Positions 27,934 through 31,107 are shown, counted from the first letter of the stretch. The stretch: 64,000 nt of DNA from Mycolicibacterium smegmatis (GCF_001457595.1 NZ_LN831039.1:1652729-1716728), one strand, 5' to 3'. Program-made: numbers and translations. The notes: generated by a model from the letters alone, not told the origin.

Positions 27934-29406
27934 TCAGTTCGAGGAGTCGCCGTCGGGCGGTGGCGCCTGCAGCGGCAGCAGCACCACGAAGCGGGTGTTG
28001 CCGGGCTCGGAGTACACCCGCAGATCCCCGTTGTGCTTCTCGACGACGATGCGCCACGCCAGGTCGAGGCCCAGCCCGGTGCCCTCGCCGAACGGTTTGG
28101 TGGTGAAGAACGGCGTGAAGATGCGGTTGATGATGTCCTCGGGGATACCCGGGCCGTCATCGCAGATCTCGACGCGGATCATCTCGTCGTTCTCGCGCGC
28201 GGTGCGGATGGTCAGGGTGCCGTGACCGTCCATGGCCTGGATGGCGTTGTCGATGATGTTGGTCCAGACCTGGTTCAGATCGCCTGGGTAGCACTGCAAT
28301 TCGGGCAGTGTCTTGTCCATGTCCTTGACCAGGGTGATGGGCTTGTCCTTGCCGATCTTGCCGCCGAACATCATCAGCGTGCTTCGCAGCAACTCGTGCA
28401 CGTCGGCGCTCTGGTAGGCGCCGCGGTCCATCTGCGAGTACTGCTTGGCCCCCGCGAGCAGCGCCGAGATGCGCCTGCTGGCCTCACCGATCTCGTTCAT
28501 GCGCAACTCGGTGTCGATCGTGTACTTGAGCCACCCGAGCGCGGACTGCAGCGTCTTCGCACCGCACGTCTCGTCGTGGACGTCCTCGATGGATGCCGAG
28601 ATCCGTTCCAGCCAGTCGATGTCGAGACCGGCCTCCACGAAGGTCGGCGCGTACTCCCACGCCATCGGGATGTTGTGGTCCTCGAGCCAGTCGCCGATCT
28701 GGTCCTCGCGGTCGGACGCCTCCAGCGCGGTGAGTTCGACGCTCTTGTTCTTGGCCACCTGCTCGGCGACCTCGTCCTGGATCGTCACGAGCACCCGCAG
28801 GGTCTCGGCGCTGAACTTGCCGTCGGCGAGCATCGCGAGCTTGTGGCGCATCTTGCCGACGCCCTCGCGCAGGTCCGCGACCGCGCGCGCGGTGGCGGCG
28901 GCGGGATTGTTGAGCTGATGTGTCAGGCCCGCGGTGATGGTGCCCAGCGCCAGGAGCTTCTCGCGCTGGCCGATGATCTGGCTCTGCCGCCTGCCGCCGA
29001 CCTTGTGCCCCTCCAGCAGATGCACGGCCATCGGGAACTGCGACTGCATGAACACCGCGAACGTGTCGGCGTCGAGCACGAAGATCCGCGACGGCTGCGT
29101 CAACCGGACCGAGGCCTCGTAGATGTGCTCCTCGCCGGGGATGTAGGCCGACCAGGCGCCGAAGTACACGCCGCGCTGCGAGGTGCGGTTGGTCTGGATG
29201 TCGACGCCGCCCGAGCGCTTCGACATCACCAGCTCGCCGTCGATCAACACGTAGAAGCAGGTCGCGGGCTCACCTTCGGTGCAGACGGGCCCGGGCGGGA
29301 ACTTCTCGATGCGGCCTGCCTCGCACAGCGTGTCGAGCTGCGCGTCGGTCAGATGCTCGAACAGGAAGAGGGTTCGCAGCTCGTCCCGTACACACAGCTC
29401 GCTCAT
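27934..29406 (-). CDS. sensor histidine kinase with an N-terminal cyclic-nucleotide-binding (CAP-ED) domain, cytoplasmic
   Basis: ATG with AAGGAG RBS. cNMP-binding beta-barrel. H-box LTHQLNNPAAA. HATPase_c N, G1 and G2 boxes. No TM segments. Confidence 0.85.
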   Translation of the reverse strand: MSELCVRDELRTLFLFEHLTDAQLDTLCEAGRIEKFPPGPVCTEGEPATCFYVLIDGELVMSKRSGGVDIQTNRTSQRGVYFGAWSAYIPGEEHIYEASVRLTQPSRIFVLDADTFAVFMQSQFPMAVHLLEGHKVGGRRQSQIIGQREKLLALGTITAGLTHQLNNPAAATARAVADLREGVGKMRHKLAMLADGKFSAETLRVLVTIQDEVAEQVAKNKSVELTALEASDREDQIGDWLEDHNIPMAWEYAPTFVEAGLDIDWLERISASIEDVHDETCGAKTLQSALGWLKYTIDTELRMNEIGEASRRISALLAGAKQYSQMDRGAYQSADVHELLRSTLMMFGGKIGKDKPITLVKDMDKTLPELQCYPGDLNQVWTNIIDNAIQAMDGHGTLTIRTARENDEMIRVEICDDGPGIPEDIINRIFTPFFTTKPFGEGTGLGLDLAWRIVVEKHNGDLRVYSEPGNTRFVVLLPLQAPPPDGDSSN

Positions 29407-29415
29407 TTGGGCTCC

Positions 29416-31107
29416 TTACGACTCGGCCAGGTAGCGGTGCACGAACATCACCGCCATCGACCCTTCGCCGACCGCGGCGGCCACCCGTTTGGCGGACTCC
29501 GCACGCACATCTCCTGCAACAAACACACCGGGCACACTTGTTTCCAAGTGGTGCGGCGGACGTTCCAGCGTCCAACCGCACACGTCGCGCAGATCCGGCC
29601 CGGCCAGGATGAAACCGTGCTCGTCGCGCGCCACGACGCCGTCGAGCCACTCGGTGCGCGGCGTCGCACCGATGAAGCAGCACAGCCGTGACGAGCGGAC
29701 CTCTTCCTGCTCGCCCGTGCGTTTGTTCTCCAGCACCAGGCCCACCAGGTGGTCGTCCTCGCCGATGGCCTTCACGACCTCGGTGCACGTGCGGACGTGG
29801 ATGTTGGGGGTGTCCTCGATCTGCTGGATCAGGTAATACGACATCGACGCTTCCAGCGACGGGCCGCGCACCAGCAGTGTCACCGAACGCGCGGTCCTGG
29901 CCATGAACATCGCGGCCTGACCCGCCGAGTTCGCACCGCCCACGATGTAGACGTCCTCGTCGCAGCACTCGGCGGCGTCGGACACCGAGGCGCCGTAGTA
30001 CACGCCGCGGCCGATGAAGTTGACCGGGTTGTCGGGGTCGTCCCAGCACCCGGGCACCGGCAGCTGCCGGTAGTCGACGCCGGTCGCGAGGATGACCGCG
30101 CGGGCACCGATCGTGTCGCCGTCGGCGAAGGTGATGGTGCGCGCCGAGCCCGCGACCTCGAGCTTGACCGCCTCGCGCGTCGTGATCACCTCGGCGCCGA
30201 AGCGTTCGGCCTGCCGCCGCGCCGAGGTCGCCAACTCGGCACCCGAGATGCCGGTGGGGAAGCCCAGGTAGTTCTCGATGCGCGAGCTGCGGCTGGCCTG
30301 ACCGCCGGTCGTGGTGCCCTCGATGAGCACGGTCTTGAGTCCCTCGGACGCGCCGTACACGGCCGCCGCCAGGCCCGCCGGGCCACCGCCGATGACCGCG
30401 AGGTCGTACATCGTCAACGACGGCGCGGTCGACAGGCCGAGCATGTCCGCGAGTTCGGCGTCGGTGGGTTCGACCAGCGTGGTGCCGCCCTCGGTGATCA
30501 CCACCGGCAGTTGCATGCCGTCGAGACCCGCGGCCTCCAGCAGTTGGCGGCCCTTGGGCTCGTCGGCGTTGAACGCGCGGTACGTGTGCTGGTTGCGGGC
30601 CAGGAACTGGCGCACCTCCCATGAGCGCGGGCTCCACTGGTGCCCGATCACCTTGGTGTACGGGATGGCCCGGTCACCCGCGGCGTGCCAGGCCTCCAGC
30701 AGGCCGTCGATCACCGGGTAGAGCTTCTCCTCCGGCGGATCCCACGGCTTGAGCAGGTAGTGGTCGAGGTCGACGACGTTGATCGCCGCGATCGCCGCGT
30801 TGGTGTCGGCGTACGCCGTCAGCAGCACCCGACGCGCCATCGGGTACAGGTCCATGGCCGACTCGAGGAACTCGATGCCGCTCATCTGCGGCATCCGGTA
30901 ATCGGCGACGAACACCGCCACGGTGTCACCGCGCAGCTTGAGCTCGTGCAGCGTCTCCAGCGCGTCGGGACCCGACTCGGCACGAACGATGCGGTACCGC
31001 TCGCCGTAGTGCCTACGGAGGTCGCGTGCCACTGCCCGGGACACGGCGGGATCGTCGTCGACGGACAGGATCACAGGTTTGCGGGGCTGGGGGGCGGGGC
31101 CAGTCAT
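29416..31107 (-). CDS. response-regulator receiver fused to a thioredoxin-reductase-like FAD/NAD(P) oxidoreductase domain
   Basis: The ORF track extends to 31422. The internal ATG at 31107 gives MTGPAPQPRKPVILSVDDDPAVSRAV (receiver domain with phospho-accepting Asp). TrxR-like FAD site (VIGGGPAGLAAAVYG) and NAD(P)H site (YIVGGANSAGQ). The canonical CxxC is absent. Confidence 0.85.
   Translation of the reverse strand: MTGPAPQPRKPVILSVDDDPAVSRAVARDLRRHYGERYRIVRAESGPDALETLHELKLRGDTVAVFVADYRMPQMSGIEFLESAMDLYPMARRVLLTAYADTNAAIAAINVVDLDHYLLKPWDPPEEKLYPVIDGLLEAWHAAGDRAIPYTKVIGHQWSPRSWEVRQFLARNQHTYRAFNADEPKGRQLLEAAGLDGMQLPVVITEGGTTLVEPTDAELADMLGLSTAPSLTMYDLAVIGGGPAGLAAAVYGASEGLKTVLIEGTTTGGQASRSSRIENYLGFPTGISGAELATSARRQAERFGAEVITTREAVKLEVAGSARTITFADGDTIGARAVILATGVDYRQLPVPGCWDDPDNPVNFIGRGVYYGASVSDAAECCDEDVYIVGGANSAGQAAMFMARTARSVTLLVRGPSLEASMSYYLIQQIEDTPNIHVRTCTEVVKAIGEDDHLVGLVLENKRTGEQEEVRSSRLCCFIGATPRTEWLDGVVARDEHGFILAGPDLRDVCGWTLERPPHHLETSVPGVFVAGDVRAESAKRVAAAVGEGSMAVMFVHRYLAES

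Follow-up and report, generated by a model that had tools for sequence, protein, structure and literature searches.

We analysed a 64,000-nucleotide stretch of Mycolicibacterium smegmatis DNA (GCF_001457595.1 NZ_LN831039.1:1652729-1716728; hereafter the window, with positions counted from its first letter) and focused on two adjacent minus-strand genes at 27934-31107. The first gene encodes a receiver domain fused, through a glutaredoxin (Grx)-fold linker, to a thioredoxin reductase (TrxR)-fold flavoprotein module, and the second encodes a histidine kinase with a CAP/FNR-type sensor. The two proteins constitute a real, conserved, cytoplasmic two-component pair and are probably cognate. The fusion protein is probably not a classical TrxR, judging by its motifs, so that the name "thioredoxin reductase" would be wrong; "cyclic-nucleotide sensor" is likewise probably the wrong name for the kinase sensor in the clade of the window. 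Overall, the pair is best explained as a cognate two-component system of the TrxB class, in which a redox- or ligand-sensing kinase would gate a cysteine-less NAD(P)H flavoenzyme, and we hold this explanation to be reasonably probable. What the analysis shows is how the domains are arranged, which motifs are kept or lost, that the two genes stay paired and that relatives have swapped domains; from this we infer the phosphotransfer, the signal, the catalysis and the gating.

Conservation and domain anatomy of the pair

The conservation of the pair was assessed in one genome per species, and 80 loci encoded proteins 64-94% identical to the fusion protein. These loci span Mycobacterium/Mycolicibacterium, Streptomyces, Nocardia, Rhodococcus, Williamsia, Kutzneria, Pseudonocardia, Streptosporangiaceae and others. 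In all 78 loci with enough downstream sequence, the fusion gene was followed in the same orientation by a kinase ortholog (50-90% identity), and the estimated median gap between the two genes was ~14 nt. In the Streptomyces loci, the gene order was the same and the regulator and the kinase were 65-68% and 54-58% identical to the window proteins, respectively. The metagenomic relatives P0241 and P0267 (~47-52% identity, canonical receiver) were also followed by a kinase with cNMP_binding and HATPase_c domains, here with a 4-nt overlap. An earlier note on this DNA, made from the sequence alone, had proposed the pair and allowed for chance adjacency; its co-occurrence across actinobacterial genomes, together with these two distant relatives, speaks for the proposal and against chance. 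P0249, a member of the wider family, is followed by a HATPase_c kinase gene as well, whereas the contigs with P0279 were of insufficient length for a view of its neighbours. We presume that the pair is absent from M. tuberculosis.

Two further observations were made in these loci. A tandem second kinase paralog stands between the fusion gene and the kinase ortholog in four Mycolicibacterium/Mycobacterium loci, giving two paralogs of ~480 aa each (L023:9674-12586, L026:9690-12626, L030:9672-12585 and L032:9454-12557). In addition, a zf-UBP gene (~117-aa product, Pfam zf-UBP E = 7e-14) lies directly downstream of the kinase gene on the same strand in 35 of the 40 non-mycobacterial loci (L041-L080), at about 11,100-11,570 of each locus, for example L060:11104-11457. 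We found no zf-UBP gene in the mycobacterial loci or in the 64-kb window. The zf-UBP protein is a possible third component, whose gene mycobacteria would have lost or relocated.

In the window, the fusion gene (29416-31107, minus strand) encodes a TrxB-class response regulator of 563 aa plus stop from an ATG at 31107, and the kinase gene (27934-29406, minus strand) encodes 490 aa plus stop. Both open reading frames (ORFs) are intact and are separated by a spacer of 9 nt (29407-29415). The fusion protein shares 97% identity with its closest named relative, which is annotated in M. goodii as a "FAD-dependent oxidoreductase". The receiver of the fusion protein (30733-31074, minus strand; aa 12-125) matched Pfam Response_reg over aa 13-125 with 51.5 bits against a cut-off of 30.2. 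The residues D17, D18, D69, T97 and K120 are invariant among the actinobacterial orthologs; the acidic pair, the phospho-acceptor (Asp69, 30901-30903), the Thr and the Lys are thus all present. By their conserved residues, the receiver and the kinase would be competent for phosphotransfer.

The output part of the fusion protein retains the TrxR fold and most of its cofactor motifs, with HRRxxxR reduced to one Arg. The FAD/NAD(P)H module (29422-30411, minus strand; aa 233-562) matched Pyr_redox_2 over aa 234-549 with 115 bits, and its motifs GGGPAG, GGQ, GG(A/G)NSAGQAA, Arg414, MSxY and GD are invariant or nearly so. To this extent, the earlier assignment of a TrxR-like FAD/NAD(P)H domain was right as far as the fold is concerned; the redox activity that the comparison implied found no support. 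In the HMMER alignment to TrxRs, the site of the missing redox CxxC (29980-29991, minus strand; aa 373-376) reads A-S-V-S, which aligns to the C-A-T-C of Escherichia coli TrxB and to the motif of solved TrxRs. The position is A/S-x-x-S/T in every one of 70 orthologs, and Cys is not among the five commonest residues at either CxxC position in 102 representatives of the wider family. The module also scored 211.8 bits against the TIGR01292 thioredoxin-reductase equivalog in NCBIfam, under the cut-off of 343.45. Because the redox-active disulfide is gone, the module would be unable to reduce thioredoxin by the classical dithiol mechanism.

We considered Cys381/Cys382 ("ECC") as a substitute redox centre and rejected it: Cys382 is variable, and most wider-family members have Leu, Met, Val or Phe in place of Cys381. 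The actinobacterial orthologs that were sampled all keep Cys381, and this pattern of conservation suggests a buried position. The family has conserved features of its own, namely an insertion of ~13 aa ahead of the GD motif (GPDL...W...R.P.H.LE) and the polar residues D495, D505, R516, H520 and E522 near the C-terminus of the flavin domain. We modelled the fusion protein with AlphaFold2 (AF2) from 121 diverse sequences, with a predicted local distance difference test score (pLDDT) of 92.4 and a predicted template-modelling score (pTM) of 0.85; a model from a shallow alignment (50 sequences, 66-97% identity; pLDDT 62.6) was discarded. The retained model fits TrxRs in the flavin-reducing ("FR") conformation best, with a template-modelling (TM) score of 0.94 to 5mh4.

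The linker between the receiver and the flavoprotein module had been described as a glutaredoxin-like segment of roughly 110 aa. The fold was supported by the AF2 topology, and the sequence match and the active-site cysteines were not. In the high-confidence model, the linker (~90-110 aa) has the order beta-alpha-beta-alpha-beta-beta-alpha of glutaredoxin/thioredoxin, with strands at residues 152-155, 177-180, 202-204 and 210-212 and helices at 160-171, 184-192 and 216-222 (pLDDT 88-95). The domain so defined lies at 30433-30660 (minus strand; aa ~150-225). Its match to Pfam Glutaredoxin was insignificant (11.7 bits, E = 0.31, cut-off 22.9). W-S-P-R-S, with no cysteine, occupies the active-site position where Grx has CxxC/CxxS, and W158, R161, S162 and P201 are conserved. 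Pro201, which is conserved across the family, precedes beta3 and so corresponds, in position only, to the site where thioredoxin-fold proteins carry a cis-proline.

The second protein had been read as a soluble histidine kinase with a CAP-type domain, and no DNA-binding output domain was expected in the pair. Both statements held: cNMP_binding matched above its threshold, HATPase_c matched as well, and Pfam found no DNA-binding domain in either protein. The CAP/FNR-type sensor (29002-29394, minus strand; aa 5-135) matched cNMP_binding (PF00027) over aa 41-122 with 34.2 bits against a gathering cut-off of 27.5. The claim that this domain senses cyclic nucleotides (cNMP) fared worse. In a HMMER alignment of the sensor to a cyclic-nucleotide domain of PKG, the Glu of the phosphate-binding cassette (FGE) falls on Ala84 (FGA), which is nearly invariant in an alignment of 24 actinobacterial orthologs. 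The site of the cassette Arg is His94 (His or Gln in orthologs) by HMMER and the invariant Tyr96 in a manual register, and no Arg occurs in the cassette stretch of any of the 24 kinases. Cys5, Cys28 and His129 are invariant in the alignment of the 24 orthologs. In a family-profile search, the best solved-structure relative of the sensor was DNR, a heme/NO sensor (E = 1.3e-10).

Canonical cassettes are kept outside the clade of the window, as FGE...PRTAS in the distant homolog kinase L082 (L082:3393-4778) and as VGE...PRTA in the wider-family protein P0243 (aa 597-681). Their presence suggests, from the motifs, a change of ligand within the family. Sensing of cNMP may be ancestral, or valid elsewhere in the family.

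The phosphotransfer region of the kinase is unusual. The dimerisation and histidine-phosphotransfer (DHp) region (28537-28974, minus strand) contains the H-box helix with His163 (28918-28920) and a conserved insertion at aa ~190-290. The H-box THQLNNP, with an invariant His163, aligns in the profile comparison to the H-boxes of ZraS and CckA, and the two DHp helices lie ~130 and ~125 family positions apart in these alignments, whereas the corresponding spacing is 26 residues in ZraS and 21 in CckA. The insert of ~100 aa (28537-28839, minus strand) carries the motif SD-x-ED...W...W and the invariant residues E229, D232, E234, W240, W250 and W292. It is also found in the distant metagenomic kinases L081 and L082, and no Pfam family matched it. 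Of the Pfam families that the earlier note had listed, cNMP_binding, HATPase_c, Response_reg and Pyr_redox_2 were matched, and HisKA gave no match to the kinase at E <= 0.01, probably because the insert splits the DHp helices. The catalytic domain (27967-28281, minus strand; aa 376-480) matched HATPase_c (PF02518) with 88.7 bits, and its N, G1, F and G2 boxes are invariant (N387, D416xGxG420, FxPFFTTK and GxGLGL).

Wider flavoprotein family and comparison with known systems

A search of the whole library with aa 135-563 of the fusion protein, which cover the Grx-like and TrxR-like parts, revealed a large family. At least 2,674 clusters at 50% identity matched the Grx-fold and TrxR-fold module at E <= 1e-30. 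We classified the N-termini of 115 full-length representatives of the module with local hidden Markov models. A receiver-like N-terminus was found in 66 of the 115 representatives, and in at least 29 a CAP-type (cNMP_binding-like) domain replaces the receiver; Pfam confirmed cNMP_binding at the N-terminus in 8 of the 10 proteins tested. In P0243, a single chain joins the flavoprotein module to a receiver-like domain and also to a cNMP_binding domain at its C-terminus (aa 597-681). On comparative grounds, these swaps and fusions argue strongly that the CAP-type sensor, the receiver and the flavoprotein module work together. The one cNMP_binding-type relative that we checked has no adjacent kinase gene. 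Pseudo-receivers were also observed: in P0252, P0254, P0264 and many others of P0241-P0390, neither the acidic pocket nor the phospho-acceptor Asp is left. P0252, the sole relative with a degenerate receiver that was checked, likewise stands without an adjacent kinase gene.

The earlier note had not recognised the architecture as a described system. It has in fact been catalogued: REC-TrxB is among the listed classes of response regulators (PMC5847659), "TrxB" is the response-regulator output class of the pyridine nucleotide-disulphide oxidoreductases in a cyanobacterial census (PMC9953108), and SCO7297 (kinase) and SCO7298 (regulator, family "TrxB") appear as an unnamed pair in a 2022 review (PMC9739842). 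The class also figures as "TrxB" in P2CS and in the Galperin census. The pair of the window is a member of this class, as it shares the receiver, the pyridine-nucleotide-disulfide-oxidoreductase module and the regulator-then-kinase order. The catalogues are silent on the missing CxxC, the non-canonical cNMP sensor domain and the DHp insert of the class. Some members are named "fused response regulator/thioredoxin-disulfide reductase" at NCBI. Our literature search for functional studies of REC-TrxR or cNMP-TrxR proteins yielded censuses and omics tables only.

The likely orthologs of the pair are MSMEG_1516/1515 and SCO7298/7297, and published studies contain several records under these names. 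Cys5 of MSMEG_1515 was reversibly oxidised, from 35.6% in untreated cells to 48.5% after NaOCl (PMC5430705), and the N-terminus of the window kinase reads MSELC. The Streptomyces gene sco7298 ("trxB3") was induced by polysulfide (PMC9952706). Msmeg_1516 was also under-represented after VapC overexpression.

We compared the fusion protein with the known TrxR-fold enzymes. Among solved structures, the output module is nearest to authentic TrxRs, with which it shares roughly 30-36% identity. Unlike the window module, the low-Mr TrxB (TIGR01292) has the CxxC and a full HRRxxxR; the window module has its own MSxY motif, the insertion before GD, and the N-terminal receiver and Grx-fold domains. AhpF resembles the fusion protein in carrying a thioredoxin/glutaredoxin-fold domain N-terminal to a TrxR-fold reductase. 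AhpF entries were the top Foldseek matches by E-value, and the AhpF and AhpF-homolog models of NCBIfam matched the reductase part at 166-180 bits. However, AhpF is an electron donor to AhpC with two CxxC centres, neither of which is present in the fusion protein, and the domain arrangement of AhpF is not superposable on our model (TM 0.38-0.41). The cysteine-poor TrxR-fold flavoenzymes YumC/FNR, a TrxR-type ferredoxin-NADP+ reductase, and YpdA/Bdr, a bacillithiol disulfide reductase, were more distant in sequence (E about 1e-11 to 1e-17, versus 1e-41 for true TrxRs). The Cys of YpdA is not equivalent to Cys381 of the window protein, and the YumC and YpdA enzymes are without signalling domains.

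On the kinase side, DNR, CooA and FNR share the beta-barrel sensor fold, and the kinase sensor likewise lacks the cNMP cassette residues. The Cys and His residues conserved in it could have a redox or heme role, and the four-Cys cluster motif of FNR is missing from it. DNR, CooA and FNR are one-component DNA-binding regulators, whereas the window domain is fused to a histidine kinase. Among response regulators with enzymatic outputs, CheB, RpfG and PleD carry a methylesterase or a cyclic-di-GMP enzyme, whereas the output of the window protein has a flavin oxidoreductase fold.

Proposed mechanism and alternative explanations

Given that the residues holding cNMP are lost and that Cys5, Cys28 and His129 are invariant, a non-nucleotide or redox signal is most likely. 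The kinase, which probably controls the receiver-flavoprotein, would use these three residues to respond to thiol oxidation or another redox signal, or to a ligand other than a nucleotide (possibly heme). It would then autophosphorylate on His163, and the phosphoryl group would move to Asp69 of the receiver. The TrxR-fold module would most likely act as an NAD(P)H-dependent flavin oxidoreductase with a non-disulfide acceptor. By analogy with CheB and RpfG, phosphorylation of Asp69 may turn the flavoenzyme on or off, by relieved inhibition or by dimerisation.

Several points weigh against this mechanism. With every catalytic cysteine gone, the flavoprotein module could be a pseudoenzyme or a sensor instead of an enzyme. 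The site of HRRxxxR (HRRDxFR) reads V-R-G-P-S-L-E, with R414 as the sole conserved Arg, which bears on the nucleotide preference. The stress links derive from omics tables and not from targeted experiments. Moreover, the MSMEG numbers were assigned from annotation, size and the Cys5 match, and not by sequence comparison.

A broader joint reading extends the proposed system to the whole family, and we offer it tentatively, as something that could well be otherwise. The fusion protein would represent, in two-component form, a large class of TrxR-fold flavoproteins that lack the cysteines and are gated by signals, with a chemistry new for the TrxR fold (a non-disulfide acceptor, or NAD(P)H/redox sensing). 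The DHp insert would be a module of a new kind for docking or sensing, and the signal read by the actinobacterial sensor would have changed from cNMP to a Cys/His-based redox or heme one. As part of this reading, and with the same reserve, control of the class would lie with a CAP-type domain fused to the module, with a pseudo-receiver or with a true receiver.

The principal competitor to the phosphorylation-gated flavoenzyme takes the flavoprotein for a pseudo-reductase whose input is NAD(P)H/NAD(P)+ or the redox state of the flavin. The fusion protein would then be a co-sensor, a phosphate sink or a protein-protein effector, for example one that binds the zf-UBP protein whose gene follows the kinase gene in most non-mycobacterial loci. 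We consider this explanation rather unlikely. In its favour, both redox modules are cysteine-less while the cofactor motifs stay invariant, and the many relatives with degenerate receivers, of which the one checked has no adjacent kinase, imply that the module can work without phosphorylation. Protein partners are also suggested by the co-immunoprecipitation of the ~60-kDa "thioredoxin reductase" Msmeg_1516 with gp145 of phage Wildcat, a toxic protein that causes branched filaments (PMC7474061). Msmeg_1516 is found in the ClpC1 interactome as well. On the other hand, D495, D505, R516, H520, E522 and the insertion near the C-terminus of the flavin domain resemble a substrate site more than they resemble decay, the predicted structure takes the NADPH-to-flavin "FR" geometry, and no partner is conserved in mycobacteria.

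The literal version of the first proposal, a cAMP/cGMP-type sensing kinase that controls a genuine thiol-disulfide reductase of the thioredoxin/glutaredoxin type, is less probable still, and for the clade of the window we regard it as unlikely. It can point to the cNMP_binding score above the gathering threshold, to the canonical cassettes of the L082 kinase and of the C-terminal domain of P0243, and to the authentic TrxRs as closest solved relatives of the output module. Against these stand the Ala in place of the cassette Glu and the lack of a cassette Arg in the 24 kinases, the absence of CxxC from every ortholog and the rarity of Cys at its positions in the wider family, a Grx-fold domain without an active-site cysteine, and the TIGR01292 score below the cut-off.

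The least probable explanation, to which we give hardly any weight, is that the adjacency is meaningless or that the true unit comprises the kinase, the regulator and two F420-type luciferase-like monooxygenase (LLM) oxidoreductases. The two paralogous LLM genes (26056-27853, minus strand) had been noted immediately downstream on the same strand, and this description was confirmed by their TIGR03620 scores in NCBIfam (374.8 and 380.1 bits, cut-off 219.8); the proteins are 66% identical to each other. They follow the pair in the window, as they do in mycobacterial loci whose flank is long enough. However, they were beside it in 0 of the 40 other actinobacterial loci, whereas the pairing of kinase and regulator held in all 78, and ~80 nt separate the kinase stop from the mechanical start of the LLM ORF, as opposed to 9 nt within the pair. 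The LLM-rmlB-rmlC block is presumably also present in M. tuberculosis, which we take to lack the pair. The suggested functional link between the pair and the LLM paralogs therefore reduces to mycobacterial synteny, and we treat these genes as context outside the system.

Should the module prove to be a flavoenzyme that is gated by phosphorylation and uses a new acceptor, bacterial signalling would gain an output class. It would also account for the fusions of CAP domains to flavoproteins, which form a very large family. To our knowledge, two-component systems that switch enzymes rather than promoters are few, and we know of none with a flavin oxidoreductase that has been worked out. What is new here is the loss of both dithiol centres, the non-canonical Cys/His sensor, the DHp insert, the one-component relatives and the zf-UBP neighbour. 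The pair is conserved in model actinomycetes (M. smegmatis and S. coelicolor) and in many soil actinobacteria. Stress proteomics and transcriptomics routinely call the fusion protein a "thioredoxin reductase", and the present analysis corrects the reading of such datasets.

Neighbouring genes and sequence context

The window DNA is high-GC, and the pair sits between a flotillin/NfeD pair and rmlB/rmlC, with an infA-rpmJ-rpsM-rpsK-rpsD-rpoA block close to the region. The fusion and kinase genes are probably co-transcribed. A scan of the pair region with the sigma-70 consensus gave no promoter match, and a terminator scan gave terminator-like matches only at chance level. Read from the sequence, a -10-like hexamer, CATAAT (31115-31120, minus strand), lies 7 nt upstream of the fusion ATG, where it would fit a possible leaderless promoter and transcript for the fusion gene.

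Two gene starts were revised. The mechanical ORF of the fusion gene is 105 codons longer and extends to a GTG at 31422, into the flotillin gene; since all ortholog alignments begin at the Met at 31107, the start was placed there. The first LLM ORF (26936-27853, minus strand) is over-extended at its 5' end, and its start is probably near an internal Met at ~27790, because homolog alignments begin around aa 18-32.

Immediately upstream of the pair, 31211-33376 (minus strand) encodes a flotillin-like SPFH/Band 7 protein of 526 aa with a long Ala/Glu/Gln-rich repeat region. A small membrane protein encoded beside it was provisionally called NfeD-like; it had no Pfam match. The flotillin/NfeD genes were ruled out as members of the system, as they stand next to the pair in only a minority of the mycobacterial loci.

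Further away, 38375-40519 (minus strand) contains three tandem paralogous genes for secreted-looking proteins of ~225-230 aa. These share the motif C-x-D-[IV]-E-V-[IV]-F-A-R-G and appear cutinase-like from inspection of the sequence. On the plus strand, the window contains an ORF of 1,212 aa at 46814-50452 and large ORFs of 570, 221 and 623 aa at 58751-62933.

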